DNA of 64,000 nucleotides from an uncultured Bacteroidia bacterium (GTDB taxonomy: Bacteria > UBA4055). The notes under the pieces were generated by a model that was given only the letters and a program-made list of their open reading frames with translations, made no database searches and was not told the DNA's origin. The position numbers were made by a program, and so were the translations under genes. How positions within the stretch are numbered: the first letter of the stretch is position 1; each line of letters opens with the position of its first letter. This document shows positions 2,619 through 58,008 of the stretch, one piece after another. Location of the stretch: contig CAZYNH010000004.1 in the NCBI GenBank assembly GCA_964648295.1, positions 613-64,612 of the forward strand, read 5' to 3'.

Positions 2619-3821
2619 ATGAACAAAAATTTCAGAATTCTGTTTGTTGACGATGAGGCACCGGTTCTTAACGGTATCAGGCGGATATTTCAGGCAAGAA
2701 GAAGCAACTGGGAACTGGTTTTCGCATCAAGCGGGAAAGAAGCAATTCAGAAGGTTTCTGTAATAGATTTCGACCTGATCGTTACAGACGGAAAAATGCC
2801 CGGAATGAGCGGAAGCGAGATGCTTAGAGAAATGAAGGTCCAGGGACTGACAAAAGATATTCCCACAATAATGCTGACGGGTTATGTTGACGACGACATG
2901 AGAAAGGAAGCTCTTGAGTGCGGGATAATCGAATTTGTCAATAAACCCGTTATTCCCGACGAGTTCGTACTCAGAATTGAAAATGTGCTGAACTTCAAAA
3001 TGATGCATGACGAGCTCAAAACTTCGACTGAGCAACTCACCACCGTAAACAGCGAGTTAAACAGGCTCTACGAGATAATAAGTACTCAAAAGAAAGAACT
3101 TGAAGAGCTTAATGAAATGAAAAGTCAATTCATTGAAATCGCGATGAACGAATTCAGAAGCTCAACAAAAGAGATATCTGAATATACTTCAGGATTAAGA
3201 GGATTGATGAACCCTGAAACAGATAAAGAAAAAATTGTGATAACTGAACGAATTATTCAGAGTGTTTCCGAACTGTCCGGAGTATACAGGAAGATCGTTA
3301 ATATTTCAGATATTACAACCGGAACCTTAAAACTTAATTATTCCCGGTCAAATGTTCTTAAATTTTTCAATGAGCTCATTGAGAATTCATCCCATGTCGC
3401 AGAGAAAAAGAATATTAAATTGATTTCTGAGCATGACAATATCCTGCCTGTAGAAAACTATATGGATACGAACAAAATATGGATAGCTGTTTCAAAACTA
3501 CTTGAAAATGCCGTAAAATTCTCCGAAACTACGAATAAAGTAGATTTTGGAATGAAATATTCGGACAATATGCTTAAGTTCATAATAAAGGACTACGGTA
3601 TAGGGATGAATGATGATCAGATGAGGAATCTGTTCTCATTCAACAACAGTGATAATGAAAACAAACAGGGTGTCAGCCTGCCTCTTGTTAAAAAAATTAT
3701 TGACGCTCATAAAGGTAATATATGCGTTGAGAGTAAATTCGGCGGCGGAACAAAATTTACCGTCTCGATACCTGTACTGGAAACAATTCCCGGAGAACTT
3801 GATAATGGGTCCGAATCATAA
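2619..3821 (+). CDS. Receiver domain fused to a histidine-kinase-like module lacking the phospho-acceptor His (putative pseudo-kinase)
   Basis: Canonical REC (ILFVDDE, LIVTDGKMPGMSG, EFVNKP), coiled-coil linker, DHp-like segment with Asn at the His position (FIEIAMNEFRSS), HATPase N-box and G1 present (LLENAVKFS, IKDYGIGM). RBS GGAG before the ATG. Confidence 0.75.
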   Translation: MNKNFRILFVDDEAPVLNGIRRIFQARRSNWELVFASSGKEAIQKVSVIDFDLIVTDGKMPGMSGSEMLREMKVQGLTKDIPTIMLTGYVDDDMRKEALECGIIEFVNKPVIPDEFVLRIENVLNFKMMHDELKTSTEQLTTVNSELNRLYEIISTQKKELEELNEMKSQFIEIAMNEFRSSTKEISEYTSGLRGLMNPETDKEKIVITERIIQSVSELSGVYRKIVNISDITTGTLKLNYSRSNVLKFFNELIENSSHVAEKKNIKLISEHDNILPVENYMDTNKIWIAVSKLLENAVKFSETTNKVDFGMKYSDNMLKFIIKDYGIGMNDDQMRNLFSFNNSDNENKQGVSLPLVKKIIDAHKGNICVESKFGGGTKFTVSIPVLETIPGELDNGSES

Positions 3822-5601
3822 GCTCAATTCTTTCTTCAAGAACTACTTCGTTTATCTCTCGATCTTCACGATTGAGATAATCTGTGTCGTTGCCTATTTT
3901 ACTTATAAAAATATTAACTTGCTCGCCAATTCCGCGCTTGTTGAAAAATACGGCCTTTCTAAGCTTTATGCTGATGACATTGATCAATTTTTGGAGGCTT
4001 ACAAGGCTACCGTAAGTCAATATTATGTAATGGCGGGCATTGTAATAGCATCGGTTGCAGCTTTTGCCGTAATCATTCACTATCTGATGAAAAAAAGGAT
4101 GACCGATGTCGAAAAAATGAACGCTCTTGAAGATCTGACAAGGGATACTTCAAAGATACTCAAGAGCGAGATCAAATACCGTTCTCTTTTTGAGAACAAC
4201 GGTACCGCTATACTCGTAGTCGGTGACGACGAGAATATAAGCGACTGCAATGAGAAATTCAGCGAACTTATAGGTTATTCCAAAGAAGAGATGATCAGAA
4301 ATATGCATTGGAGTAAAATTGTCCATCATGAAGATATCGAAAGGGTCAAAGGTTACGACAAGCTGAGAAGAACGAATCCCGCCAAGGCTCCTGCCGAATA
4401 TATGATGAAACTGAGAAGGAAAGACGGAACATACAGGCAGGTGATAGTCAATGTCATTGTGCTTCAGGGTACAGAGCAGCTAGCTTCCGTAATAGATATA
4501 ACCGATATGATCGAAAAAGACAGAGCTTTAAGGGAAAATCAGGAACTCCTTAATCAGGCACAGGAGATAGCCTCCATGGGCAGCTGGACCTATTATCCCG
4601 AAAACGATGAGCTTAAAGTATCAAAAGAATTCCTGAAAATCCTGGGTATTGACAAGATCACAGAACCCTTAACTCTGACATATCTGAAAAACCGGTTTGG
4701 GTTTGATCAGTTTTATAATGAAGTGTCAGGATTGAATAACTCCGCAGCCGGCTTAGACAAAGAAATTACTTATCTGGATGAAAAATCGCCTCTGTCAGAC
4801 AAAACCAAATATTTTAAGCTCAAAGCCAGAGCAGGATCAACAGCCGAGAAAGAATTGAAAATTACGGGCATAATTTTGGACATTACAGACAGAAAAAAGA
4901 TCGAAAATGAGATAAATAGGGCAAACGAGGAAATGAAAAACCTTATTTATGTTACAACTCATGATCTGCAGATACCGCTTATCTCAATAGAGGGCTTCTC
5001 TAATCTTCTTTTAAGATCATGCCAGAATATTGAGATCACTCAGGAAGCAAAAGATTACCTTGAAAGAATAAAATCGAATGTTAAAACTATGAGTTCGATG
5101 TTTAAGAATTTCTTTGACATCTCAAAGATTACCGCGATAAAGAATCCTTTTGAATACATAAAAACTTCCGATCTTATTAACCAGGTGGCAAGTGAGATGC
5201 GGATACTGACAGACAAATACGGATCTTCAGTTAAAATTGACTGCGGCAATCTCTTACCCGATATATATGGGGACAGAGAAAATCTTAGGCTCGTTTTTTA
5301 CCATTTGGTTTCTAACGGCATTATTTACGGCGGCAAAACCGTGACTGCCGGTTATGAAAAAAGTAAAGGGTTCTTTATAAAAGACGACGGCACCGGAATA
5401 TGTACAGATGATCTGGAGAGAATTTTCCTGCCCGGAATAAAACTTGAAAAAGAAGAGAATTATGAGGGCTCCGGCATGGGCTTGACTATATGCAGAAAAG
5501 TTATTGAGCTGCACAACGGAAAAATATGGGCTGAATCTGATGGAAAAGGCAAAGGAACAACAATTTTCTTCACACTTAGTAATGAACTAATCAGGGATTA
5601 A
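3805..5601 (+). CDS. Membrane-anchored PAS sensor histidine kinase
   Basis: Start refined from track ORF 3649 to the ATG at 3805 (MGPNHK), 17 nt overlap with the upstream stop. N-terminal TM helices, two PAS-like regions, H-box (THDLQIPL), HATPase (IKDDGTGI, GSGMGLTICRKV). Confidence 0.8.
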   Translation: MGPNHKLNSFFKNYFVYLSIFTIEIICVVAYFTYKNINLLANSALVEKYGLSKLYADDIDQFLEAYKATVSQYYVMAGIVIASVAAFAVIIHYLMKKRMTDVEKMNALEDLTRDTSKILKSEIKYRSLFENNGTAILVVGDDENISDCNEKFSELIGYSKEEMIRNMHWSKIVHHEDIERVKGYDKLRRTNPAKAPAEYMMKLRRKDGTYRQVIVNVIVLQGTEQLASVIDITDMIEKDRALRENQELLNQAQEIASMGSWTYYPENDELKVSKEFLKILGIDKITEPLTLTYLKNRFGFDQFYNEVSGLNNSAAGLDKEITYLDEKSPLSDKTKYFKLKARAGSTAEKELKITGIILDITDRKKIENEINRANEEMKNLIYVTTHDLQIPLISIEGFSNLLLRSCQNIEITQEAKDYLERIKSNVKTMSSMFKNFFDISKITAIKNPFEYIKTSDLINQVASEMRILTDKYGSSVKIDCGNLLPDIYGDRENLRLVFYHLVSNGIIYGGKTVTAGYEKSKGFFIKDDGTGICTDDLERIFLPGIKLEKEENYEGSGMGLTICRKVIELHNGKIWAESDGKGKGTTIFFTLSNELIRD

Positions 5602-7476: not shown

Positions 7477-9780
7477 TCAGTTTTTGAGTATTTCTTTTAC
7501 GTTTTCGACTAAAGACTGTCTTGAAAAAGGTTTCTGTAAATAGATCTTATTTTTATCCAGCAGACTGAAATCCATTATAGTGCTTTCTGTATAGCCGGAC
7601 ATATATATGACCTTTGCCTCAGGGTACTTTTCGAGCAGCTTCTCACCTATCTCATCACCATTCATATCCGGCATGATAACATCCGTTATCAACAGATCAA
7701 TTTTTTCGGTTTCGTAAAATTTCATAATATCTTCAAAAGATGAGGCGCAAAAAACATTAAATCCTTCCTGCTCAAGCATTTTAGCCACTACATCCCTTAT
7801 TTCTTTCTCATCATCGATCACTACGATTTTTTCACCGTGCGGCTCTACATTCTCATACTGTTTGATCTCTTTCTCTATATATTCTTCAGCATCTGCTGAC
7901 GGAAGGTATATTTTGAAACAAGTCCCTCTACCGGGTTCGCTGTAACAGGACACATATCCGTTGCTCTGTTTCACTATCCCGTAAACCGTTGAAAGACCCA
8001 GTCCTGTACCCTTTCCCAAGCCTTTTGTGGTAAAAAACGGCTCAAATATTTTGTCCACTGTTTCTTTTGTCATTCCTGTACCGGTGTCAGTTACGGCAAT
8101 CATCGCATAACTTCCGGGTTTAAGTTCAGAGTATTTTTTTATATAATTATCATCTATCTTTACATTCTTAGTCTCTATCGTTATCTTCCCGCCTTTGGGC
8201 ATGGCGTCCCTTGCGTTGATCACCAGATTCATTATCACCTGATCCATCTGTCCTTTATCAGCCTTCACCGGACTGATCCGCGGTTCAAGAACAGCTACCG
8301 TGTCAATTCTCTCTCCGACCAGTCTTTTTATCATTTTCTCAAGATCGTTGACTATTGTATTCAGATCTATTATCTGAGGTTTCAGAACCTGTTTCCGGCT
8401 GAATGCGAGAAGCTGACTTGTCAGTTCGGCTGCCCGCTGCCCGCTTTTTTTTATCTCGATGATATCTTCCGTAAGAGTGTCATCATTCTTCGATCTTGCA
8501 AGTATTAAATCGCAGTTGCAGAGAACCACCATAAGCAGATTGTTAAAATCGTGAGCTATTCCGCCGGCCAAAAGACCAATCGCTTCCATTTTCTGAGATT
8601 GCCTGAACTGTTCCTCAAGCTCTTTCTGTTCAGTGACATCATGTACTATTCCAAGCATTTTTGCGGTCTTTCCGTACCTGTTCTTCTCGAATTGTGCTTT
8701 TACATGAATTTTCCTTAAAGAACCGTCCTTTCTTTTAATCGAATGAATTTTTTCAAAAGGCTTACACTCGTTTATTGCCCTTGTAAATTCGGCGTTGATT
8801 TCATCTCTTTCATCTTCCGGAATGAAACTCATATACAACTTATAGTCCGGTTTTGTTGAAGATTGATCTAATCCAAAAATTCTGTATACTTCATCAGTCC
8901 AGGTAAAATCCATTGTTTTACTGTCAAAGATCCAACTGCCGACATGCACAATTTCCTGTGTTCTTCTAAGCAGAGCTTCATTAGATTTTAATTTATTTTC
9001 AGCTTTGATCTTCATTGTCATATCCAGCCCCACACAGAGTAATCCCGAAATGTCAAAATATTCGTTCTTAATCTGCGACACATGCCATTCGACAAATAGA
9101 CTTCCCCCCTCTTTCTTTGTTATTCTTGTTACACAACTCGAATCGATTTCAGTTGTTAGGCACTTGGTAAAAAAATCGGCGGCTGATTTTTGATAATTAA
9201 GGGACACATAATTTTTTATAAGACTTTTATTCCTTGCTTCTTCCACTCTGTAGCCGGTTATATCTCTGAAAAACTCATTTACATTCACAATGTTGAATTT
9301 CCCGTCGATCACCATTATAATAGCTTTTGCAGTGTTTATTATGTTATCTGACAGCTGTTTTTGTGAGATCAGATTGTCAAGCGCTTTTTTTCTTTCGATA
9401 GAATGCCTTATAGCTCTTATTAGTGCGTCTTTATCAAATTTCCCTTTAATAAGATAATCCTGAGCCCCAATACTAAGCACTTTCTTTATTATCCTTATAT
9501 CGTCACTTCCTGTTAAGGCAATGACCGGTAAAGTGGGATTCTCGTTAATTATCATCATGGGAGCTTCAGCTCCCACGCACCCGGGCAGCCCGAGATCGAC
9601 AAGGGCAATATCATAGCGCATGAACTCAAAATCTTCCAGAGCACTGTCAATATCTTTAAAATGACTTATCTCAGCGTCCGCGTAATCGAGCATTTCTTCT
9701 ATCAGTACCGCGTCTCCGTCATTGTCTTCGACAATAGCGATCTTAAGATTTTTATCCATTTTTACATCTCCGTTCATCAT
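7477..9780 (-). CDS. Hybrid sensor histidine kinase: REC - PAS x2 - HisKA - HATPase_c - REC
   Basis: N-terminal REC (KIAIVEDNDGD, ALVDLGLPG), PAS regions, H-box (IAHDFNNLL), HATPase (VTDTGTGM, GLGKGTGLGLS), C-terminal REC (KIVVIDDE, LLITDVIMPDMNG). True start may be the internal Met at about 9759. Confidence 0.85.
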   Translation of the reverse strand: MMNGDVKMDKNLKIAIVEDNDGDAVLIEEMLDYADAEISHFKDIDSALEDFEFMRYDIALVDLGLPGCVGAEAPMMIINENPTLPVIALTGSDDIRIIKKVLSIGAQDYLIKGKFDKDALIRAIRHSIERKKALDNLISQKQLSDNIINTAKAIIMVIDGKFNIVNVNEFFRDITGYRVEEARNKSLIKNYVSLNYQKSAADFFTKCLTTEIDSSCVTRITKKEGGSLFVEWHVSQIKNEYFDISGLLCVGLDMTMKIKAENKLKSNEALLRRTQEIVHVGSWIFDSKTMDFTWTDEVYRIFGLDQSSTKPDYKLYMSFIPEDERDEINAEFTRAINECKPFEKIHSIKRKDGSLRKIHVKAQFEKNRYGKTAKMLGIVHDVTEQKELEEQFRQSQKMEAIGLLAGGIAHDFNNLLMVVLCNCDLILARSKNDDTLTEDIIEIKKSGQRAAELTSQLLAFSRKQVLKPQIIDLNTIVNDLEKMIKRLVGERIDTVAVLEPRISPVKADKGQMDQVIMNLVINARDAMPKGGKITIETKNVKIDDNYIKKYSELKPGSYAMIAVTDTGTGMTKETVDKIFEPFFTTKGLGKGTGLGLSTVYGIVKQSNGYVSCYSEPGRGTCFKIYLPSADAEEYIEKEIKQYENVEPHGEKIVVIDDEKEIRDVVAKMLEQEGFNVFCASSFEDIMKFYETEKIDLLITDVIMPDMNGDEIGEKLLEKYPEAKVIYMSGYTESTIMDFSLLDKNKIYLQKPFSRQSLVENVKEILKN

Positions 9781-35597: not shown

Positions 35598-36491
35598 TTA
35601 AAGCCATTTGTATATTTCAGGATCCCATTTTAGCGTTAGATCGGAAGGATTAATTACAGGCACGATAAAATTCTTAATATCTGATATTATGGCAGAAAAA
35701 GATTCCGGTAATCCGTTCTGTCTGATCTTTTTTCTAAACGCTTTCCATTGTACTGTCTTAGATTCTGCAAAATCATTAGAAAAAGCTGTTATGTTTCGAT
35801 CTAGTATGACATTCCTATGATTAAAAGTCTTTTGTAATGATTCAGACAATATTCTCATTTCAAAAGTAAAATTATGCGAAAGCAGCCAGATATCATAAAA
35901 ATCTTTCATGCGGCTGTTCAAAATCCCGAGAGTCGTCATCGCTTCAAACTTCTCTGCTATAGCAGTTTCTTTAGAATAGCTTAAAATAACAGGATTAGGA
36001 AAATCAAGAATAACCGGGAATTCAATCTTCTGAGGCTCAGGAAAAGTCAGGTCGTTAAATCCGACATCAACCTGCATATAAATTCTTGCTGTATCAAGTT
36101 TTGCATAGAAGGTAACTCTCACACCGTGATATTCGGCATCATGTTTGATGAGGGCAGTGCTGATCGTTTCGGAAAAGAATTTTATTCCGTCATCTTCTAC
36201 CTTTGTATTTAAGATATTCCTGAATACTTCTCTGATATTTTCTTCTGAGTTTTCAAGTTTTCCCAAAAGATCAATATCCTTTGTCAGCCTGAGATTACTA
36301 TTTCTCCAAATTGTAAAAAGTAATGCTCCTTTAAGAATAAACCTGTCTGAATATTCCGATCTTGAAATTCTGTATAATAATCTTTCCATTGCGTAAAGGT
36401 TCAGGATTTCATCGAATTGTACTGTTTCCGTTTTAGACTTGTTTTTGAGTCTTTCTCTGACCGAAAATGCCATATTTTTAATTACTTTCAT
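35598..36491 (-). CDS. AbiEii/AbiGii-family nucleotidyltransferase toxin (type IV TA / abortive infection)
   Basis: N-terminal region typical of DUF1814/AbiEii (ERLLYRISRSEYSDRFILKGALLF, DIDLLG); about 297 aa; 4-nt overlap with the upstream AbiEi-like gene. Confidence 0.75.
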   Translation of the reverse strand: MKVIKNMAFSVRERLKNKSKTETVQFDEILNLYAMERLLYRISRSEYSDRFILKGALLFTIWRNSNLRLTKDIDLLGKLENSEENIREVFRNILNTKVEDDGIKFFSETISTALIKHDAEYHGVRVTFYAKLDTARIYMQVDVGFNDLTFPEPQKIEFPVILDFPNPVILSYSKETAIAEKFEAMTTLGILNSRMKDFYDIWLLSHNFTFEMRILSESLQKTFNHRNVILDRNITAFSNDFAESKTVQWKAFRKKIRQNGLPESFSAIISDIKNFIVPVINPSDLTLKWDPEIYKWL

Positions 36492-37093
36492 ACTACTGCC
36501 TCAAGATATGGCTGCATCACTTTAACAACACGGCTCATTTTTGCGTATTCATATATTTTATTTACATCCATTCTGCCTCGTTCACGGTAAAACTTCAGAG
36601 CTTCGATCGCTACATCAAGACCGATCTTATTTCTGAACCTGAAACAGTCCACAAGTGTTTTTTCCGGATCATAAACTTTTATTTTTACTCCGTCAATTGT
36701 ATGCTCTTCGATCCCGGCTGAATAAATATCCGGTTTCAGATAATGCACATCAAGACGAATTCCGTTTACTGTCGGAGGTCTGGATCTTTCGATTATGGCG
36801 ATACTTACAGATCTTTGTATCTGTGTTGTCATTCTATGAAAAACGAGTGCGGATATCAGAAAAATTACTGCTTTTGATGATTTTGAGCAAACAAGCTGAA
36901 TATCCGGATAAGAAAAGTTCTGAGCTGATGCGAGTCTGTAAACTCCTCTCGTAATTTTTTCGAAAATACCCTTCTTTACCATCGAAGAAAGGTGATAACG
37001 GCTTATACCAGACCTGACAGCTTCAGACATTCTCATCTGACCGCCATGTTCTCTGAATATTTCCAGCATTTTTTTAGTCATAACATTGAACAT
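36488..37093 (-). CDS. AbiEi-family antitoxin / transcriptional regulator
   Basis: N-terminal wHTH-like segment (EAVRSGISRYHLSSMVKKGIFEKITRGVYRL); size and position immediately upstream of the AbiEii-like gene. Confidence 0.7.
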   Translation of the reverse strand: MFNVMTKKMLEIFREHGGQMRMSEAVRSGISRYHLSSMVKKGIFEKITRGVYRLASAQNFSYPDIQLVCSKSSKAVIFLISALVFHRMTTQIQRSVSIAIIERSRPPTVNGIRLDVHYLKPDIYSAGIEEHTIDGVKIKVYDPEKTLVDCFRFRNKIGLDVAIEALKFYRERGRMDVNKIYEYAKMSRVVKVMQPYLEAVV

Positions 37094-37179
37094 AATGTTT
37101 GTAATTATACATAACTAACGACAATATGTATAATATTTTACTATAAGTCAAGCAATATTTATAATATTTTACGCTTGAA

Positions 37180-38112
37180 TTAAAATGAATCACTTTGCTT
37201 CCCCAATCTACTCAGCATTTCTACTGCTTGAATATCCATCCTTGAAAACCCGAACCACTTTTTGCCCAAATCTTTTAGTGAAGCTCCGAAATGATAGATA
37301 ATATTTTCATCAATTATTATAAATCTGTCGTGCGAATTACTGAACTCTACAATTTCCACAGGTTCATACTGCTCGTTGAACTTCTTAACATCAAGCTTGA
37401 GCTGATCAGATACCGACTTGGAATAGATCGAGGCCTTAACTCCCGTTATTCTCTTTGACAACATCGTTAAGACTGAATCATCAATATAGTTATCTATGAT
37501 CAGAATTGACTTCTCCGCGCTTTTGAAAATATCGGATACGAATTTATATGCATCATATACCTGGCCATCATAGAATACTCCACTCTTCTGCTTAACTTCT
37601 CCGCTTTCCATTAATGAAAACAGTTTATCGAACTTTTGATCATAATCAATCTGTTTAAGCTCTATTCTATCAAGTCTTTGAAATACCTGAGCATTAGTCT
37701 GAATAAATTTCCTCATTTCAATAAAAGCACTCATAATTCTCACACTGATCTCAATGGCTGTTTTACTATTAAGAACTGCCGATAGCATAGCAACACCCTG
37801 CTCTGTAAAAACATAAGGAAGATATTTTCTGTGCTGACCTCTTCCATCTGTTTTTATGGTGACAAATTGGCACCTTAAAGAAATATATTCAGTTTCATTT
37901 AATTGAAAACAAAACGAACTCGGAAATCGTTCTGAATTCCGTTTCATCACTCGATTAAGATATTTGGTCTCAACCCTGTACAACTCTGCCAAGTCTCTGT
38001 CCAGCATCACCTGGAATCCCCGGATCGAATATATCTTTTCTCTGATCTTGCTCTCGAACTTTTCCAATTCATACTCCGACATAACCGCCTCTCCAACATT
38101 ACTTTTACGCAA
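37180..38112 (-). CDS. ORF6N (KilA-N-like) domain-containing protein
   Basis: N-terminal ORF6N-like segment (IYSIRGFQVMLDRDLAELYRVETKYLNRVMKRNSERFP); C-terminal half unrecognised. Start probably the internal Met at MSEYEL. Confidence 0.6.
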   Translation of the reverse strand: MRKSNVGEAVMSEYELEKFESKIREKIYSIRGFQVMLDRDLAELYRVETKYLNRVMKRNSERFPSSFCFQLNETEYISLRCQFVTIKTDGRGQHRKYLPYVFTEQGVAMLSAVLNSKTAIEISVRIMSAFIEMRKFIQTNAQVFQRLDRIELKQIDYDQKFDKLFSLMESGEVKQKSGVFYDGQVYDAYKFVSDIFKSAEKSILIIDNYIDDSVLTMLSKRITGVKASIYSKSVSDQLKLDVKKFNEQYEPVEIVEFSNSHDRFIIIDENIIYHFGASLKDLGKKWFGFSRMDIQAVEMLSRLGKQSDSF

Positions 38113-49112: not shown

Positions 49113-52100
49113 TTATTTTGAAAGTGTCTTAATGAATTTTTCTGTAAATTCGAACCTGTTCTCCCCGTAAGGTATTTCTACGGTCACTTTTTCTCCACCG
49201 TTCTCAAGCTTTATATCATAATTCATTTCTGTTATTTCCCTCGTCAAGTTCTCCTGAACTTTGATCGCAGTTTCGGTGTTCTCGATCTCCTCGAGCTTTT
49301 CTATATCAAAAGTGAATTTAATATCTTCCTTGGTGCCCCTTTCAGCCAGAGCTATATTTTTAATAAAAATTCTGCCTGCTATTATCGAGAGGTACAGGTT
49401 ATTTAAGAGATTTACAACTTCCGGGGGCAGAACGCCGAACCTGTCCTTTATCTCCGCTCTTAATACTTCTATCTCATCCGTTTCGGTAAAGTTCATCATG
49501 CGGCGGTATATTTCGACCCTTTCGGAATCCTCCTCAATGTAATGCTCGGGCAGGAACATCTGCGATTTGAGGTTGACAGCGGCCTTGCTATATTTTGAAG
49601 GCACTTTAACATGCCTCAGAACTTCTTTAAATTCCTGCTCTTTGAGCTCGGCTACCGCTTCCTCAAGTATCTTTGAGTACATGTCGAATCCGACATTCTC
49701 GATAAAACCGCTCTGCTCGCTGCCCAGGAGGTTACCGGCACCTCTTATTTCCAGATCCTTCATGGCTATCTGGAAACCTGAACCCAGATCGGTGAATTCC
49801 GAGATAGTCTCGAGCCTTTTCTTCGCGGTCGGGGTCAGAGAATGCGGGTCGCCGGTAAGCAGGTACGCATACGCCTGCCTTGAAGACCTTCCTATCCTGC
49901 CCCTAAGCTGATAGAGCTGCGAAAGCCCGAAATTGTCGGCGTTGTTGACTATCATCGTATTGACATTCGGGATGTCCACCCCGTTCTCGATTATCGTTGT
50001 AGCGATGAGAACGGAATATTTTTTGTACATAAACTCGTGCATGACCTTTTCAAGCTCGGAAGGTTTCATCTGTCCGTGCGCGGCGACCATGCTGACCTTG
50101 GGAACGATCTTTTCAAGCATGGCCCGGACGGAATAGATCGTCTCGACCCTGTTGTGGATGAAGAACACCTGCCCTCCCCTGTCGATCTCCTTCATTATCG
50201 CTTCGTAGATCACATCGTTCCTGAACGGATGTATCTCGGTTTTAATGGGCAGCCTGTTGACGGGAGGGGTGTTTATCAGGCTCAGGTCGCGCACGCCAAT
50301 GAGCGACATGTGGAGCGTTCTCGGTATCGGCGTCGCTGTTAAGGTCATTACATCAACATTGATCCTCAATTCCTTGATCCGCTCCTTGTGAGTTACGCCG
50401 AACCGCTGCTCCTCATCGACGATCAGCAGGCCGAGGTCCTTGAATATCACATCCTTTGAAAGCAGGCGGTGCGTTCCGATCACAATATCGATCTTGCCTT
50501 CTTTGATGTCAACAAGGGTTTTGTTCTGATCTGAAGTGCTCTTGAACCTCGATAGATATTCTATGCGGACGGGATATTTTTCCAGCCTGCTTTTAAAGTT
50601 CTCGTAATGCTGATCGACTAAAATCGTGGTCGGCGCGAGGACGGCGACCTGTTTGCCGGACACCGCCGCCTTGAAGGCCGCGCGGATGGCGATCTCGGTC
50701 TTGCCGTATCCGACATCCCCGCAGATGAGGCGGTCCATGGGCATTGAGGCTTCCATATCTCGCTTAAAGTCTTCCGTGGATTTGAGCTGATCGGGCGTGT
50801 CCTCGTATTCAAAGGAAGCCTCAAGCTCCGTCTGCCACACCGTGTCAGCCGGATAGGCGAAGCCTTTGGCCGTCTTCCTCATCGCGTAGAGCTTAATAAG
50901 CTCGCGCGCGGCCGTCTTGACACTTTCCTTCGTCTTCTCGACCAGTTTTCTAAACTGCTGGCCGCCCAGCTTTGACAAAGCGGGATTCGCTCCGTCGCCG
51001 GCTTTATATTTTTGAATCAGATGAATATGATCGAGCTTTAGGAAAAGAATGTCACCGCCCTTATAAAGCAGCTTGACGACATCGCGGACCGATCCTGCGA
51101 CCGTGATCTTTTCAAGACAGAGGAACTGTCCGATACCGTGATCCTGATGGACCACATAATCGCCGTATTTTAGCCTCTGAAGATCTTTGAAGGGTATTAC
51201 TTTTTTAAATCGCCTAGTCAGTTTGGGTCTTCTCACTCGCCCGAATATCTGATGGTCGGTATATACAGATATTTGCGAGCCGGGCAGGAAAAAACCCTCG
51301 TGAAGCCCCCCGTCCGAGATCGTATATCTCTTGAGCTGAGGTATCTCTTCTGAAATTATATCCGAGAACCTTTCAGTCTGACCCGGATTGTCGCACAGGA
51401 TATATGAATGAACTTCGGCGTTGTCGTTATTTAAAAGCGTGTTCAGGAAAGGTTTGAAATCGTACCTGAAAGATATCTGTTCCCTAATGTTTATTTTTAT
51501 ATCTTTGGCGTCATCAGTGAACCCGTTAAAGTATCCCCTGCCTTTCATCAGCCTCTGCTCAACGAACTGAACAGGAAAATACTTCTTTTCAGGATGCGTC
51601 CCCTTTTCAGATATTCTTTCCCAGCCGGCGAGGATCTGGTCATTATAGTAAGCGTCCAGCTTCGTTTTAAGATCTTCGCATTCCTCTACGAAAAAAACCG
51701 TCGTTCCGCTGTCGGTTAAGTCTATAAGGTTAATTCCCTCACCTTCATCACTCTTCATGTCCGACAGGTATATTTCGGCGGATTTCACCGCTTCGATCTT
51801 CTTCTGGCTCGCCGGGTCGAAATACCTTAATGACTCTATCTCGTCGCCGAAGAACTCTATTCTGAGCGGGTATTCCGAAGCGTACGGATAGATGTCGATT
51901 ATGTTGCCTTTTCTGGCGAATTCGCCTATGTTCTCGACCGACGATACTTTTTCGAAACTTTTCTCAACGAACTGCCCTACGAGTTTTTCGGGCTTGACTG
52001 AACTTCCCGCCTTTACTTTGAGCTTTATGTCTTTGATGCCTTCTCTGTCCGGTATCTTCTCAAAAAGATTCCTGTATGTAGTCGAAATTATGCCGAATTT

Positions 52101-52445
52101 CCCGCTGAGCACTTTTTCCAGAGTGACGAGTCTTGAGCCTTTCCTTTCGTCGTCGATGTCGCCTGAACAGTATGGGTAATTCTCGCCGGGAAGAAGCAGG
52201 TCGCAGGCATCGTCCTTTCCCGCGATCAGGTTAATATCATCCCTGAATTTTTCCGCGTTCTCGACTGAATCCGCAAAAAATACGACCTTCATTTTGTTCT
52301 TTTCGTGCAGGTATGACAATAAAAATGCCCTGAATGAGTAAGTGATGCCTTTAGAGCGGACGATCTTCTGCCTGCCTATTATCTCTGCCGATCTTTCAAG
52401 GTCCGGTGACGCAAATATTGCTTTTTTTAATTTCTGAACTGACAT
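49113..52445 (-). CDS. mfd: Transcription-repair coupling factor
   Basis: 1110 aa; superfamily-2 helicase motifs ([19 protein letters not shown]), Mfd-like N- and C-terminal regions. Confidence 0.92.
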
Positions 52446-52462
52446 TTAAGACTTTGCGGCAT

Positions 52463-52792
52463 TTAGGATTTTTTAACTTTACCGCTGTCTTTGATAAAAT
52501 AAACTACGGCGTCAGAGATGAGAATATAAACAAGAAGGCTTAAAGCTGTGCGGGTCATGTATTTGACCAGAATTGCCCTGTTAATGAAGAACGAATCGAA
52601 GCATGCTACAACTATCATTACGAAAAAGAAGAAATATATTATGGCCCAGAAGATGTTGTTGAGCTTCATGTTTTTATATTTCAGCGATCCTTCTTCAAAA
52701 TCCTGTTCTTTCTTTAAAATGTCCGGCACGAAAAGGCCGAATGCGGCTATCATCAGCGTCCATGCGAGGAATTTGTTCTTAGTTTCTTTCAA
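52463..52792 (-). CDS. Small hypothetical membrane protein
   Basis: Three predicted TM helices; TTG start in the track; no recognisable family. Confidence 0.3.
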   Translation of the reverse strand: MKETKNKFLAWTLMIAAFGLFVPDILKKEQDFEEGSLKYKNMKLNNIFWAIIYFFFFVMIVVACFDSFFINRAILVKYMTRTALSLLVYILISDAVVYFIKDSGKVKKS

Positions 52793-52816
52793 TTTTTTAC
52801 GCTCCGTCAGTTGTGA

Positions 52817-52954
52817 TTATTTGATCTCCAGTTGATCAGGATCCTGCCTGCAATCCCAAATCGTATGGATTATTATTTCATCTGCGCTATGTTCATAAAA
52901 TATAATCAGGTTTTCCACGATCAGCCCCCTTACAGGATCCAAATCGGTTTTCAT
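52817..52954 (-). pseudogene. Truncated RelE/ParE-family toxin remnant (C-terminal half only)
   Basis: 45-codon ORF right after the antitoxin stop (MKTDLDPVRGLIVENLIIFYEHSADEIIIHTIWDCRQDPDQLEIK) resembling a RelE/StbE C-terminus; the N-terminal ~45 aa are absent. Coordinates +/-1. Confidence 0.3.
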
Positions 52955-52984
52955 ACAGCTTCGATCTGGCTTTATTGGACCAGA

Positions 52985-53221
52985 TTATCTTCCTTTGAGC
53001 CATCCGGCGACTTCCTTTTCAAATATCTTGTGCTCGGTAAATAACCCTTTTTCAATATCCTTCTTTGACTCTATGATCTCATTTCTCTGCTTTTTTGTCA
53101 ATGTCAAAACTTCAGAATCAGTCTTAGAATCCAGAATGGTTTTTATGGCTTTAAGAAAAGAAAGATCGTCAATCTCAGCTATTCTGTGTATCAATATTTT
53201 TTTTAATTCAAGAGTCGTCAT
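52985..53221 (-). CDS. Putative addiction-module antitoxin (TIGR02574-like)
   Basis: 78 aa (MTTLELKKILIHRIAEIDDLSFLKAIKTILDS...) matches the small helical antitoxin family that pairs with RelE/ParE toxins. Confidence 0.55.
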   Translation of the reverse strand: MTTLELKKILIHRIAEIDDLSFLKAIKTILDSKTDSEVLTLTKKQRNEIIESKKDIEKGLFTEHKIFEKEVAGWLKGR

Positions 53222-53302
53222 ACCTTAATTCTCCATCTTTCACTCTATATGTAAAGATACGCAATCGGCGCATGCATATCAATCCTTTTTTACAAATCTT
53301 TT

Positions 53303-53614
53303 TTATCTGGCGGTTTTTAGATCAATTACATTTGACGGGTTACTGCTTTTAAAATCTTCAACTTCTTTTCTTAAATCACTTGTTTCTATTGTAGACCAAC
53401 CATTCTTATATTTTGCTTCTTCTACATCATATACATATTGAATAGATAACGGATCGTTGTTAGTCCACATATTCGCTGTTGAATTAGCTGGACTTGAATC
53501 CATTTCAAAAGGAATCGGTGAAAGATAATCGTAATTTAATTGTTCATGATATGTACTAAGTTCATCAAGAGAATTAGTAATTCCACCCATAACCATGTGT
53601 GAAAACAAACGCTT
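53303..53614 (-). pseudogene. ORF fragment, probably the 3' part of a gene disrupted by the IS3 insertion
   Basis: Track ORF 53303..53722 begins inside the IS terminal repeat, so its N-terminus is IS-derived; the remainder has no recognisable family. Confidence 0.25.
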
Positions 53615-53649
53615 TGTGTCAACAAAGATGTCGCCTCTGTTAATTGATT

Positions 53650-54570
53650 TCACTGTTTGATCTCCGGATTCAAAACCACTTTTTCCGGCGCACCCCAGAT
53701 TTTCATATTTCTCTTTCCCCATCTTTCGGGATATAGTTTCTTGGCTTCATCCATAACGGCGTTACGCTTTGTAAAAATCATTTTTGCTTCACCGCTTCTC
53801 ATCTGTGCCGGAGTAACATAATCCACAGACGAATGAAGGTGATCATTGTTATACCAGTTTACGAAGTCAGCCATCCATTCTCTCGCATGATTTATGTCTT
53901 TGAAGCGTAGCGGATACTTCGGATCGTACTTTAAAGTTTTGAAGAACGATTCGATGTAGGGATTATCATTGCTGGTTCTCGGACGGCTGAACGACACATT
54001 GACTTTAAGCTCGCTTAAAAGAGCCATCAGGGTTACGCCTTTCATTATCGAACCGTTATCGGAATGTAGATAGCTGAACTTGATATTTCTTCCGCATAAA
54101 ATACTTTTGAAAAGCTCTTCGCTGTGCTCATCTTTTTCTTCTTCGTAAACTGCCCAGCCGACGATGCATTTATCGAAAATATCTATTATCATATAGGCAT
54201 AAAAGAAAAGGCCTTTTATAAGCGCGGGAAGCCATGTTACATCCCAGCACCATACCTGATCGGATCTTGTGGCTGTACGCTCGGGCGGTCTGGACTGCTT
54301 TCTACGCTTTGCAGGACGAACCAGACTGGCTGTTTTCAAGATTCTGTAAAATGTTCTGACCGAACCATAATATATAGTGTTGTCAAGAAGCATAGGCACA
54401 ACTTTATGCGGGCTGAGATCACGGTACTCAGGCTCGTTGCATACATTTATTATTTCCTGACGCTCATCCGGTTCAAGCTTTCTTATTACTTTTGTATGCG
54501 ATCCTTTTCTCCTGTCTATCAAGCCTATCTTTCTCCACCTTTGTAAGGTTCTTTTATCAATGCCTACCAC
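53650..54570 (-). CDS. IS3-family transposase OrfB (integrase/rve catalytic domain)
   Basis: DDE/rve motifs (WCWDVTW, YLHSDNGS, NDNPYIESFFKTLK). Confidence 0.9.
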   Translation of the reverse strand: MVGIDKRTLQRWRKIGLIDRRKGSHTKVIRKLEPDERQEIINVCNEPEYRDLSPHKVVPMLLDNTIYYGSVRTFYRILKTASLVRPAKRRKQSRPPERTATRSDQVWCWDVTWLPALIKGLFFYAYMIIDIFDKCIVGWAVYEEEKDEHSEELFKSILCGRNIKFSYLHSDNGSIMKGVTLMALLSELKVNVSFSRPRTSNDNPYIESFFKTLKYDPKYPLRFKDINHAREWMADFVNWYNNDHLHSSVDYVTPAQMRSGEAKMIFTKRNAVMDEAKKLYPERWGKRNMKIWGAPEKVVLNPEIKQ

Positions 54571-54653
54571 TTCACAAGCCTTGAATTGTCTGGCACCGTT
54601 TGCACGAGCTTCATCTATCAGGACGACTATCTCTGATTTTACTACCTCAGGGA

Positions 54654-55151
54654 TCAGTCGTCCCCGTCTTCCCCCAAAAGAGTCTCTAATTTTTTTTTTA
54701 GCACAAGCAAAGCTGCTGTTTCTGCGAGTGCTTTTTCTTTCCTTGCAAGTTCCTTCTCAAGCTCTTTATTCCGCTTCATAAGCTCGCGGAGTTTCTTATC
54801 TTTTTTGTCTTCCTTTTTCGTTACCATTTCTCTAAGCTCCTGATCCCATAATTTTAAATGTTCCGAGTGAAGTCCCCGTTCACGCAGAAATTCTCCCAGT
54901 TTCTCTTCAGGTAGCCTGGCTGATTCCATCAGAAGCTGGTATTTTTCCTTACTGCTCAGGTGACGAAGACTCTTGTTAACTTGTACAGTATCAAATATAC
55001 CATCTTTTTTCTGTTTTATCCAATTACGAATTGTCTGTTCGCTGAACCCAAACTGCCGACTTGTGCCTCTAATACTCTTGCTTTCAGGCGGTAACACTTT
55101 CTTTAAAACTCCGATCTTTATTGATCGTGAATACTCCATTTGTTCCTCCAA
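54654..55151 (-). CDS. IS3-family transposase OrfA (HTH + leucine zipper)
   Basis: HTH (GTSRQFGFSEQTIRNWIKQ), Lys/Glu-rich zipper, KKK encoded by an 11-nt A-run near the 3' end (candidate frameshift site). Confidence 0.85.
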   Translation of the reverse strand: MEEQMEYSRSIKIGVLKKVLPPESKSIRGTSRQFGFSEQTIRNWIKQKKDGIFDTVQVNKSLRHLSSKEKYQLLMESARLPEEKLGEFLRERGLHSEHLKLWDQELREMVTKKEDKKDKKLRELMKRNKELEKELARKEKALAETAALLVLKKKLETLLGEDGDD

Positions 55152-55408
55152 CTTGAGGCGACATCTTTATTGGCACATAGTGATTAGCAACACTGCTGCT
55201 CGTATTAAAACACGGGAAAAGCAGCATGAAAACAAAGAAAAATAGTAAAAACAGCCTTCTTTTTTGGCAATCGCTCAAAAATGGCAGTTTTCCGGCACTG
55301 TTCATGTCTAGAGACAAAAATTCTTTTAAAGCGGGATTTTCAGCTTTTGCTGAATATGGCGTGTTCATAAGTTCCTCCGGTGAGGGTTTGATAAGGTTTT
55401 GCTTGCTT

Positions 55409-55660
55409 CTATTCGTAAGCTTCTTTCCTGTGCTTGATCCTCAATACAAGTACTGTGCTATCAGAAGTTATTGAGTAAATTATTCTGTAATCGCCAACTC
55501 TGAACTTTCGGAGGCCGGCAAATTTTCCTTTCAGCTCAGGATACTGGTCCGGTTTTTCTGCAAGATCTTTTTCAATTTTATCGAATATCCGTTTGATCTG
55601 CTTTTTATCAATGCCTTTCAGATCCTGAGTAACAGAATTTTTGAAAGATATGTTATACAT
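55409..55660 (-). CDS. RelE/ParE-family type II toxin
   Basis: 83 aa ending ...FRVGDYRIIYSITSDSTVLVLRIKHRKEAYE; overlaps the upstream antitoxin gene by 8 nt. Confidence 0.75.
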   Translation of the reverse strand: MYNISFKNSVTQDLKGIDKKQIKRIFDKIEKDLAEKPDQYPELKGKFAGLRKFRVGDYRIIYSITSDSTVLVLRIKHRKEAYE

Positions 55661-55871
55661 TCAGTTTTTTCCTAAGATCAGTAATGGATATTTCTGTATC
55701 TGAAGTATCGCGCATCCTGTCGAGCGCTATCTGAAGATCAGCCTGCTCCTCAATATATGATTCTATAGCTTTTTTGATAAGGAAAGACCTAGATCTTTCT
55801 GTGATCTTTGCGATCTCGTCAAGCGAGGAGGCTAGTTTATCCGGCAGTCTTACAGTAACAGTGGTATTCAT
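55653..55871 (-). CDS. Ribbon-helix-helix (CopG/ParD-like) antitoxin
   Basis: 72 aa, N-terminal RHH signature (TVTVRLPDKLASSLDEIAKITERSRSFLIKKAIESYI). Confidence 0.7.
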   Translation of the reverse strand: MNTTVTVRLPDKLASSLDEIAKITERSRSFLIKKAIESYIEEQADLQIALDRMRDTSDTEISITDLRKKLNV

Positions 55872-55930
55872 AAAAACTCCTTTGTCATCATTTGTAATAC
55901 AATATAATCACTTTAATTACAAAAGTCAAA

Positions 55931-56419
55931 TTAATCTTTTTTTGCTTTGTTCTTTTTATCTCTCTCCCTCAGCTCGCGGAAAAAATTCTGCATGAGTTCC
56001 TGAATTTCATTGCGCATCAGGCCGCTTTCGACTGTCACGGTCTTGTTGATGTTTAGTTCTTTAAGGCCGTCGAATTTTGACGAAATAAAGCCCATTCTGG
56101 GGTCTTCAGCGCCAAAGACGATTCGACCTATTCTGGAAAGAGAGATCGCTCCGGTGCACATCATACAGGGTTCCACAGTGACATAGAGCGTGCAGTCGTT
56201 GAGTCGCCAGTTGTCTTTACTGTTCTCGGCTGAAGTAATGGCGATCATTTCGGCATGAGCTGTCGCGTCGCGTAAAAGTTCGGTCTGATTGTAGCCCTCA
56301 CCGATTATGATGCCGTCACGCACTATCACCGCTCCGACCGGCACTTCTCCCTCTTCGTAAGCCCTCATCGCGAGTAGGTATGCTTTTTTCATGAATTTTA
56401 TGTCATTTTCGTCGAACAA
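55931..56419 (-). CDS. tadA: tRNA-specific adenosine deaminase
   Basis: CDA zinc-binding motifs (HAEMIAI and PCMMC), about 160 aa, typical TadA N-terminus. Confidence 0.85.
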   Translation of the reverse strand: MFDENDIKFMKKAYLLAMRAYEEGEVPVGAVIVRDGIIIGEGYNQTELLRDATAHAEMIAITSAENSKDNWRLNDCTLYVTVEPCMMCTGAISLSRIGRIVFGAEDPRMGFISSKFDGLKELNINKTVTVESGLMRNEIQELMQNFFRELRERDKKNKAKKD

Positions 56420-56430
56420 TTTATTCTCCT

Positions 56431-58008
56431 TTAAAGCAGAGCTTTTTCCCAGAGCGTTTTAAGCGCATCCGGATTTCCCACGCTGAACAGGTTCAGATAT
56501 TCGGGATCATCGTACAGGTTCGATTTCTCTATATCCTCATATCTCCTGCCTTCGTAACGCTCAAGTCCTCTCAGAAGCTCGGTCTCCATCTTCTTTTCAA
56601 AGTGAATGTGAAAATAAAGCCCCATCGGCTGACTGTACTTAAGCCAGTTCGCCATAAAGTCCGCAAACCACCTTCTCAGTTCCACAATATATTCCTCTAT
56701 CAGTCTGCTGACAGTTACCGCCGGAGAATTTTTCCTTATCGCCAGATGGAGTTCGATCTTCTTTTTGAACAGAACAGTCTGATCCGCAAAAAGTTTTATG
56801 TCTTTTTCAAATTCTGTTTCGAATTTTACATCTTTTACAGATGCTTCTACTTGTAAAATTCTTGTTAACAATTCAGACAGCTGACCGTCATTCTGATCGG
56901 CAAAACTTTTGCCGGAAAAAGGGTTGTCATGAAACATAAGTTTGGTGATATATTCCGGTTTGTTTCTGACACATTCCGAGTTAAGATAATCACCGTAATG
57001 TACTTTATCTAAAAGTTTTATTATTTTATCTATTTCGTCTTTTGCATTATATTTTTCAACCATCTGACCATTAAAAACTTTAACTGCCATATTAAATAGA
57101 TTTTCTGTGAATGAAAATGGATGAACATGACCTGCATCTCCCCAGTCGGTTATCATGTAGCCGAAAGCATCAAGTTCGTCGGCTCTTTCCTTCATCAAAC
57201 GGAAATTTTTAAGAGCGTAATCATACCGCGGAAAGAAACTTTTCCATGTGTTCGTTCCCGGACAGACAAGTATTTTCGCGTCGATATTCTTGTAGCTTTC
57301 AGGCATGTCTTTAAAGTCGTAATTCCAGTAGCAGACCACAGTATCGGGACCCAGCTTCTTCATAACTTCTGGATTTTTATCTATCATATCGCCCCAGAGA
57401 ACGATCTTTCTGTCATGCCTTGCCGCTATCTCTTTCAGCTTCAGAATATGGTTAAGAAAAAGCTCATCCTTCGATATATGCTGAAGTAAATGCGCGCTTT
57501 TGCCCGTAGCCATGTCATAAACTTCGTCACCGCCGATGTGGATGTATTCAGAGTTGAACACCTGCGAAGCTCTCATATAAAGGTCGTCTATAAGCTCATA
57601 GGTCTGATCCGAAACAGAGACCGACCATTTTTTCTCCGATTCGGCAAGATTTTCATATTCCTTCCATTTAAGAATGTGGAACATGTGACCGAAAGACTGA
57701 ATAAGAGGAACCAGAGAGAGTTTCAAACCTTCCGCGTAATCAGAAAGCTCTTTAAACTCCATAATTTCGTACCCGTCAGATTCAAAGCCTATCATCTGAT
57801 GTTCAGGTATCTTAAAAGTGTGTTCGATATTGAAAAAGACGGTATTGTAGCCGTATCCCGCAATATTTTTCAGCATCAGTTTCAGCCTCTCAAGCTTCGG
57901 GACACGGAACCTCGAAATATCTATCATGCAGGCTTTCATTTTATATCCGGTCATCCTTCCTCCACAAAATACGGTTTTCAAATTTAACTGATAAAACTCT
58001 GTTTTCAA
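56431..58008 (-). CDS. Glycoside hydrolase family 20-like protein (putative beta-N-acetylhexosaminidase)
   Basis: HIGGDE catalytic motif (SEYIHIGGDEVYD); TIM-barrel-like N-terminal half; no signal peptide. True start may be an internal Met. Confidence 0.55.
   Translation of the reverse strand: MKTEFYQLNLKTVFCGGRMTGYKMKACMIDISRFRVPKLERLKLMLKNIAGYGYNTVFFNIEHTFKIPEHQMIGFESDGYEIMEFKELSDYAEGLKLSLVPLIQSFGHMFHILKWKEYENLAESEKKWSVSVSDQTYELIDDLYMRASQVFNSEYIHIGGDEVYDMATGKSAHLLQHISKDELFLNHILKLKEIAARHDRKIVLWGDMIDKNPEVMKKLGPDTVVCYWNYDFKDMPESYKNIDAKILVCPGTNTWKSFFPRYDYALKNFRLMKERADELDAFGYMITDWGDAGHVHPFSFTENLFNMAVKVFNGQMVEKYNAKDEIDKIIKLLDKVHYGDYLNSECVRNKPEYITKLMFHDNPFSGKSFADQNDGQLSELLTRILQVEASVKDVKFETEFEKDIKLFADQTVLFKKKIELHLAIRKNSPAVTVSRLIEEYIVELRRWFADFMANWLKYSQPMGLYFHIHFEKKMETELLRGLERYEGRRYEDIEKSNLYDDPEYLNLFSVGNPDALKTLWEKALL

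Follow-up and report, generated by a model that had tools for sequence, protein, structure and literature searches.

Results

A strain-variable islet between tadA and mfd

We analyzed 64,000 nucleotides (nt) of DNA from an uncultured Bacteroidia bacterium (assembly GCA_964648295.1, contig CAZYNH010000004.1, positions 613 to 64,612 of the forward strand), a stretch that is called the window here and that supplies all coordinates not assigned to another locus. Our subject is the region between its genes tadA and mfd, where an insertion sequence (IS) of the IS3 family, two toxin-antitoxin (TA) modules and the remains of a secreted-protein gene lie together. All genes from 49113 to 58008 are on the minus strand, and in that direction they follow each other as tadA, an RHH antitoxin gene, a RelE/ParE toxin gene, an open frame of 62 codons, the IS, a frame of 101 codons, a gene for a protein of 78 amino acids (aa), a broken ParE-like gene, the gene of a 109-aa membrane protein, and mfd. 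The frame of the region is as follows.

49113–52445, minus strand: mfd, flanking the islet
52463–52792, minus strand: small membrane protein of 109 aa with three hydrophobic segments (three-helix), a core gene outside the islet
52807–55932: accessory islet proper, 3126 bp, in place of a spacer of about 44 nt between tadA and the membrane-protein gene
55931–56419, minus strand: tadA (NF008113, 159.6 bits against a cut-off of 150)

The islet was delimited by comparison with contigs of relatives, which were traced from proteins 86–94% identical to the TadA of the window. In one of these (L033, TadA 94% identical in amino acids), DNA homology to the window ends at 55933, where the tadA stop codon begins, and restarts at 52806, 14 nt ahead of the start of the membrane-protein gene, with just 44 nt (L033 10488–10531) between the two break points. 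The gene order GH20 hydrolase, tadA, membrane protein of 98–115 aa, mfd characterizes the empty-site alleles (L033, L034–L044 and L049), and a homologue of the membrane protein lies between tadA and mfd in every relative examined, empty sites included. Since the 3126 bp are missing from relatives in which tadA, the membrane-protein gene and mfd are adjacent, the islet is accessory and the membrane-protein gene belongs to the backbone. The G+C content of the islet without the IS is 0.358, compared with 0.474 for mfd and 0.47 for tadA. A preliminary description of this DNA had proposed an accessory islet between mfd and tadA, which the empty sites and the lower G+C content bear out; it had also counted the small membrane protein among the islet genes, where it does not belong. 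Pfam matches to that protein are weak and all below cut-off. Judged from these comparisons, 52807–55932 is a strain-variable genomic islet of an ordinary kind. No tRNA or Rfam family was found in 50000–58000, PADLOC gave no match for the islet's own proteins, and exact-protein look-ups of RelE, RHH, TadA and the source genome's hypothetical protein P0001 returned no record.

The IS3-family element and its ends

The IS lies between two open frames that turn out to be remnants of a single gene.

53609–55182, minus strand: IS3-family insertion sequence, 1574 bp (right repeat 53609–53637, left repeat 55155–55182)
54654–55151, minus strand: orfA, DNA-binding part of the transposase (PF01527 HTH_Tnp_1, 3.3e-9; 37.3 bits against a cut-off of 24.1)
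53650–54570, minus strand: orfB, DDE catalytic part of the transposase (rve 1.1e-12, rve_3 2.3e-16, also rve_2)
54690–54699, minus strand: run of ten A residues, candidate –1 frameshift (slippage) site joining orfA to orfB, found by three-frame translation
55183–55368, minus strand: 5′ remnant of a secreted-protein gene, 62 codons including a signal-peptide-like segment (aligned with residues 1–61 of a 633-aa protein of L045)
53303–53608, minus strand: 3′ remnant of the same gene, 101 codons and the stop codon (aligned with residues 534–633 of that protein)

The frame of orfB is in the –1 register relative to orfA and continues upstream without a stop codon to the frameshift site, so that a slip in ...CTA AAA AAA AAA... 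yields a 500-aa OrfAB; a stimulatory stem-loop about 25 nt downstream of the A run is itself weakly supported (z –1.75). OrfA matches the N-terminal part of NF033516, the IS3-family model, for which OrfB scores 160.2 bits, right at the cut-off of 160. The catalytic residues of OrfB are spaced D110-60-D171-35-E207, with K at +4 and +7 and the sequence ESFFKTLK after, and a D(57–60)D(35)E spacing with K or R downstream of the E is the signature of the IS3 family (PMC5771124).

The preliminary description had recognized an IS3 element with 23-bp terminal inverted repeats. Both the family and the repeat coordinates stand: the 23-bp inverted repeat (53615–53637 and 55155–55177) pairs exactly in the pattern described, and none is expected by chance (100 shuffles). 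The true ends, however, lie 5–6 nt further out, at 53609 and 55182, where the full terminal repeats match at 24 of 28 positions. These limits, and the length of 1574 bp, follow from L051, a further copy of the element (91.6% identical in DNA) that lies on an unrelated contig and in which homology runs exactly from 55182 to 53609, with GTCA on both flanks; they are supported by the ends of relatives. In L003 the homology to the IS likewise ends at 53609, and the tip sequences are conserved in L004–L022, L014, L023, L024, L028 and L030; beyond L051 and L004–L022, six relatives in all have them. The tips read CACTATGTG... and ...CACAAAGCGT, which departs from the classical 5′-TG...CA-3′; the TG/CA motif is internal, with TGTG/CACA 5–6 nt inside the ends in the window copy and in all relatives examined. 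TG...CA tips are typical of the IS3 family and not obligatory.

A genome scan of a single metagenome-assembled genome (MAG; SBF912LR0HQ0191, JBMNFX01) found at least 18 copies (L004–L022) of a 1590-bp relative with 59% OrfB identity. Its ends lie 5 nt outside TGTG/CACA, and clean 4-bp duplications border 14 of 18 copies. Three copies without a duplication have half-sites that pair with each other (the left tgat of L022 with the right side of L016, and the right aatc of L022 with the left side of L013), and this pairing among copies of L004–L022 indicates rearrangement through recombination between copies. In L019 (about 3850–4229), the last ~127 nt of the related IS occur as three tandem repeats downstream of one copy.

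Around the window copy there is no target-site duplication, even with the corrected ends: the flanks are TAAT and TTGT, which differ at 2 of 4 positions. The preliminary description had already reported that no clean duplication could be seen, correctly so. Alternative end placements at 53607/55185, 53610/55182 and 53615/55177 were tried by hand for duplications of 2–5 bp, and none matched. An in-frame join under a length of 1573 bp plus 4 was also considered and dropped, given the length of 1574 bp in L051.

We therefore place the element in the IS3 family, where its nearest known counterparts are IS150/IS407-like elements with a 4-bp duplication. It shares with them the two frames with a –1 slip on an A run, the HTH_Tnp_1 domain in OrfA and the rve DDE domain, together with ~28-bp inverted repeats, an overall length near 1.57 kb and, in sister copies, the 4-bp duplication (features as described in PMC5771124); adjacent deletions without duplication are a further likeness (PMC11708052). 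For the family at large, imperfect terminal repeats of 20–40 bp and duplications of 3–5 bp are the reference values. It differs in its non-classical tips, in the missing duplication of the window copy and in an NCBIfam score that only reaches the cut-off. The closest named relatives, annotated as "IS3 family transposase" in MAGs, are 58–60% identical. With its open frames and good repeats, the IS is probably still mobile.

The IS separates the two ends of one secreted-protein gene

The open frames on both sides of the IS were compared with an intact homologue of 633 aa encoded on the metagenome contig L045. The 5′ remnant aligns with residues 1–61 at 75% identity (E 1e-19; the DNA is 81% identical over 55379–55205), and the 3′ remnant aligns with residues 534–633 at 59% identity (E 4e-35). 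Because the two remnants align to opposite ends of one 633-aa protein, they are the two ends of one gene, from which about 472 codons (~1.4 kb) have been lost. The break in collinearity with L045 coincides with the IS to within 1–2 codons. In the source genome the two ends are annotated as separate hypothetical proteins, P0001 (116 aa) and P0002 (94 aa), which are in other words two pieces of one destroyed gene. The preliminary description had placed an IS end inside the open reading frame (ORF) 53303–53722; this ORF does cross the IS end, but rather than being simply an interrupted gene, it is a chimera in which some 38 codons from the end of the IS run into the final 101 codons of a ~633-codon gene. 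Of the two reasons offered there for the missing duplication, later rearrangement and misplaced ends, both proved true, the ends being shifted by 5–6 nt and about 1.4 kb being lost.

Removal of the IS in silico, which had been suggested as a check, does give a continuous in-frame ORF of 163 codons. This ORF is not the ancestral gene, and a simple insertion fails the refutation test set in the preliminary description. A word-based search of 5.8 billion proteins with the joined N- and C-terminal fragments returned only two self matches. By exhaustive HMMER search, the 3′ remnant corresponds to the C-terminal ~100 residues of secreted proteins of 586–616 aa (P0125–P0129), a family that also has shorter and far longer members. 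One of the matches led to L045.

This family has no Pfam match. Its members, from 136 to 1729 aa and in one case with 14 repeats, share a conserved C-terminal segment, NDPLS[IV]QY..D..AKY.NGW.TGE.SDLR.EV..F. They are found at 53303–53608 of the window, at 1–189, 485–2386 and 4041–4205 of L045, and at 8342–8848 of L046; in relatives, several copies, whether complete, short or carrying deletions, are concentrated between tadA and mfd. Two other genes were considered as undisturbed alleles of the window gene and rejected: a 602-aa protein at the equivalent position in L001 is unrelated (BLASTP E 0.6), and a 168-aa gene that follows RelE in L046, of a size suggestive of an IS-free allele, proved to be another member of the family that is short by nature.

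Two toxin-antitoxin modules, one of them with a broken toxin

The TA genes of the islet lie in two modules, one on the tadA side and one beside the membrane-protein gene.

55901–55929, minus strand: promoter-like site of the RHH/RelE operon, TTGACT-17 nt-TATATT (10 of 12 positions, the best such match in the region)
55653–55871, minus strand: RHH (RelB-like) antitoxin, 72 aa, intact (PF01402 1.5e-8, PF19807, NF048017)
55409–55660, minus strand: RelE/ParE-superfamily toxin, 83 aa, intact (PF05016 1.7e-15, TIGR02385 RelE_StbE)
52985–53221, minus strand: antitoxin of the ParE module, 78 aa, intact, with a broken partner toxin (role assigned from position)
52817–53003, minus strand: ParE-like toxin pseudogene with a frameshifting internal deletion of 113 bp (junction 52949–52956)

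The module next to tadA had been described as an intact RHH / RelE-ParE pair, and both proteins indeed score above their family cut-offs (PF01402, 34.7 bits against 20.5, and NF048017, 50.1 against 50, for the antitoxin; PF05016, 57.8 bits against 23, and TIGR02385, 38 against 27.9, for the toxin). The antitoxin gene comes first and overlaps the toxin gene by 8 nt (55653–55660), and the promoter-like site begins 2 nt past the tadA stop codon. The same sequence is found behind the tadA end of L046 and behind a remnant of that end in L045. From tadA through RHH to RelE, the window is collinear with L046–L048 until 6 nt beyond the RelE stop codon; the 72-aa RHH gene is also present in L046 and L047, and the 83-aa toxin gene occupies the same place in L046–L048. 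The layout is that of a RelBE-type type II TA system, with an RHH antitoxin gene upstream of and overlapping a gene for an 83-aa toxin of the RelE/ParE fold, and with its own promoter-like site; the pair has no PADLOC defence-system match. The toxin ends in ...RIKHRKEAYE, and a basic/aromatic C-terminus of this kind is found in mRNA-cleaving RelE-type toxins. As the pair is intact and of the same length as that of L046, it is probably active, with an mRNA-cleaving toxin restrained by a self-repressing antitoxin. A small hairpin (55401–55420) spans the RelE stop codon, and L046 exchanges one C-G pair in it for T-A with pairing kept, a single case of little weight.

The second module lies beside the membrane-protein gene. 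A protein identical to its 78-aa product is encoded on the JGI contigs L001 and L002, directly upstream of and overlapping an intact 99-aa ParE_toxin gene (PF05016, 4.7e-9), and from this position we take the 78-aa protein to be the putative antitoxin; searches of Pfam, NCBIfam and PADLOC assigned it to no family, even with E allowed up to 1. Compared with L001 and L002, the window has 113 bp fewer in the toxin gene. The 8-nt sequence GTATGAAA stands at each end of the deleted stretch in the intact allele of L001 and once in the window, at 52949–52956, and the two BLAST segments of the toxin region against L001 overlap by these same 8 nt. The frame is lost after codon 18, with only the first 18 codons in frame. 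The antitoxin and broken toxin were thus rightly seen in the preliminary description, though the damage is an internal deletion and not a truncation at one end, and the antitoxin is left without a working toxin. TA modules usually decay in this direction, with the toxin lost and the antitoxin kept, since the opposite order would be lethal. In its intact alleles, where a small antitoxin gene overlaps a 99-aa ParE_toxin-family gene, the module resembles ParDE-like modules of the Bacteroidota/FCB type; it differs in that the window toxin is a pseudogene and in that the antitoxin falls outside the described families.

The ParE module and both its junctions are 97–99% identical to L001 and L002, against an average of about 88% along mfd, where identity is mosaic: over window 52830–47950 it varies between 77% and 98% per 200-nt window in comparison with L001, with the top value beside the islet. 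High identity in the module next to a mosaic mfd suggests that lineages exchanged the module via recombination in the flanks.

Elsewhere in the window (35598–38112, minus strand), an ORF6N-domain protein has two neighbours, a 297-aa nucleotidyltransferase toxin of the AbiEii type (PF08843 2.4e-43) and a 201-aa AbiEi antitoxin; this patch looks like a second accessory or defence patch of the window.

A recurrent junction at the 3′ end of tadA

Two short sequences record where the islet blocks meet tadA.

55933–55953, minus strand: last 21 nt of tadA (AGAACAAAGCAAAAAAAGATT), recurring as remnants in cargo-bearing alleles (pattern search across loci)
53284–53304, minus strand: leftover tadA 3′ end with stop codon (AAAAAAGATTTGTAAAAAAGG), an older insertion boundary (match to L033)

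The remnant at 53284–53304 matches the native tadA end and the start of the spacer in L033 (AAAAAAGATTTGTAAAAAGG) and sits directly upstream of the 78-aa gene, where L001 and L002 have a longer copy (AGAACAAACTGAAAAAAGATTTGTAA). On the other side, the block with RHH and RelE begins right after ...GATT of tadA and contributes the AA of its stop codon. Given this remnant of the tadA end between the two blocks, the ParE module was inserted first, immediately behind tadA, and the intervening DNA later. Remnants of the same kind bound cargo in relatives. Three different cargoes abut the remnant at one common nucleotide, immediately 5′ of AGAACAAA (L001 3147, L045 2555 and L046 9608), the left junctions of two of the three lying off their contigs; the insertion in L046 is exact save for a 2-nt AG overlap. 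Beyond RelE, the cargo of L046–L048 is a different one, and behind it come an entire tadA-end remnant and the native spacer in full.

The cargo at this site varies. L001 has a TA-like nucleotidyltransferase/HEPN pair (524–1245), and L046 a DUF6036 nucleotidyltransferase with an 83-aa partner, also TA-like (8916–9564). In L045 the RHH/RelE module is down to three short scraps behind the tadA-end remnant (2555–2679), and the scraps are followed by a 415-aa SLFN_AlbA_2/HATPase_c_4 protein (2760–4007) with weak PADLOC matches to Argonaute-associated proteins.

The recurrence of the junction raises the question of how cargo arrives. One doubtful idea is that the last 21 nt of tadA (AGAACAAA..AAAAAAGATT) form a true site-specific attachment site, used again and again in this uncultured lineage by integrase-free cargo blocks that are moved in trans by an unlinked recombinase in the manner of a cassette array without an adjacent integrase; the cargo types may then comprise TA pairs, defence-type genes and secreted-protein genes that vary but keep conserved ends. 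The locus resembles integration hot spots at the 3′ ends of housekeeping or tRNA genes and the cassette arrays of chromosomal integrons, in that small, TA-rich cargo blocks stand in tandem, the 3′ end of the target gene is repeated, and the different cargoes of three alleles join at the same nucleotide. It differs from them in that no integrase, attC-like sites or tRNA were found and in that the blocks measure 0.5–2.5 kb. Neither the islet nor ten other ORFs of the window encode a site-specific recombinase or integrase, and when viral contigs were scanned with the 21-nt tadA core, both matches obtained were chance ones in unrelated A-rich DNA. The recurrent junction may also be mere homologous exchange between strains.

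Proposed history of the islet and alternative explanations

Taken together, we consider stacked insertions at the tadA end, combined with an IS-associated deletion and not a simple insertion, to be the best account of the islet, with a probability of roughly 0.75. The spacer between tadA and the membrane-protein gene would be a hot spot at which small cargo blocks accumulate, the entry point being in every case the extreme end of tadA. The oldest block would be the antitoxin/ParE module beside the membrane-protein gene, its toxin then having been destroyed by a 113-bp slippage deletion between the 8-bp repeats. A later block, consisting of RHH/RelE with its own promoter and the ~633-aa secreted-protein gene, would have come in between tadA and the first block, leaving the tadA-end copy behind. 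In the last event, the 1574-bp IS would have entered the full-length secreted-protein gene, with ~1.4 kb on one side lost afterwards, and it is this loss beside the IS that explains why the IS is flanked by codon 62 and about codon 535 and has no duplication. The comparisons above show in what order the blocks came, what was deleted, where the islet and the IS begin and end, and which families are involved; for the deletion we infer one of two routes: the transposase may have caused an adjacent deletion, or the IS may have recombined with a second, same-orientation copy in the same gene. There is precedent for the former: of 83 IS movements in the long-term evolution experiment with E. coli, 14 were accompanied by deletions (14 bp to 48.9 kb), and all 14 cases involved IS150, an IS3-family member, lacked duplications and were attributed to adjacent deletions (PMC11708052).

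Several observations weigh against this account. An IS-free or undeleted allele of the exact gene was not found, the closest intact homologue being 59–75% identical in protein. Relatives hold IS-free deletion derivatives and naturally short forms of the gene family (P0128, 54 aa; P0124, 136 aa; the L046 gene, 168 aa), and shortening therefore needs no IS. Exact removal of the IS is in frame, as it would be if the gene had been short before the IS arrived, but the odds of such a frame are 1 in 3. The 64-kb window holds a single copy of the IS, so that a recombination partner is undocumented. Finally, the window appears to come from a 507.9-kb contig of an assembled genome, in which a repeat-induced misjoin at the IS is conceivable.

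The second and third of these points bear on one alternative, namely that the IS inserted into an intact, short secreted-protein gene of about 163 aa, and that its 4-bp duplication has since mutated away. The naturally short family members and the in-frame excision of exactly 53609–55182 speak for such an insertion. Yet TAAT and TTGT differ at 2 of 4 positions while the frames and repeats of the IS are intact, and given a 4-bp duplication the gene before insertion would have been out of frame. Moreover, the switch from residue ~62 to residue ~535 falls exactly at the IS and inside neither fragment, which would be an unlikely coincidence had the deletion come earlier. We regard a simple insertion as improbable on these grounds.

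The last point in turn raises the possibility of an assembly artefact, whereby the N- and C-terminal fragments each adjoin an IS copy and the assembler joined them via the repeat, dropping the DNA in between. Relatives of the IS typically do break metagenome assemblies, with many matches on contigs of 1.4–1.7 kb, about the length of the IS. However, the fragments keep the orientation and order of the intact gene, and on either side the islet around them lines up with independent contigs, so that we give this explanation little credence as well; even then, IS copies would interrupt the gene.

That the whole islet is the decayed rest of one larger integrative element with a single entry at the tadA 3′ end is very unlikely, for although copies of the tadA 3′ end flank cargo as attachment sites do in integrative elements, and the islet is lower in G+C than its flanks, a tadA-end remnant stands inside the islet between the two modules and not just at its edge, the ParE module has other upstream cargo in L001 and L002, RHH/RelE occurs without the ParE module in L046–L048, and the ORFs tested contain no integrase.

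Significance

The main value of stacked insertions and an IS-associated deletion as the account of this locus lies in a corrected annotation: P0001 and P0002 are two ends of one gene, the ends of the IS and the length of its duplication are defined, one of the TA modules is dead, and the membrane-protein gene is backbone. The IS itself is unnamed, the disrupted secreted-protein gene is uncharacterized, and the islet as such is ordinary. For the IS3 family, the locus provides a clear natural case of an element at a deletion junction without a duplication, a pattern that is experimentally documented for IS150. The recurrent junction at the tadA end is the sole lead with some novelty; should further genomes confirm it, this would suggest that TA and surface-protein genes are gathered by a site-specific route in a poorly known lineage.

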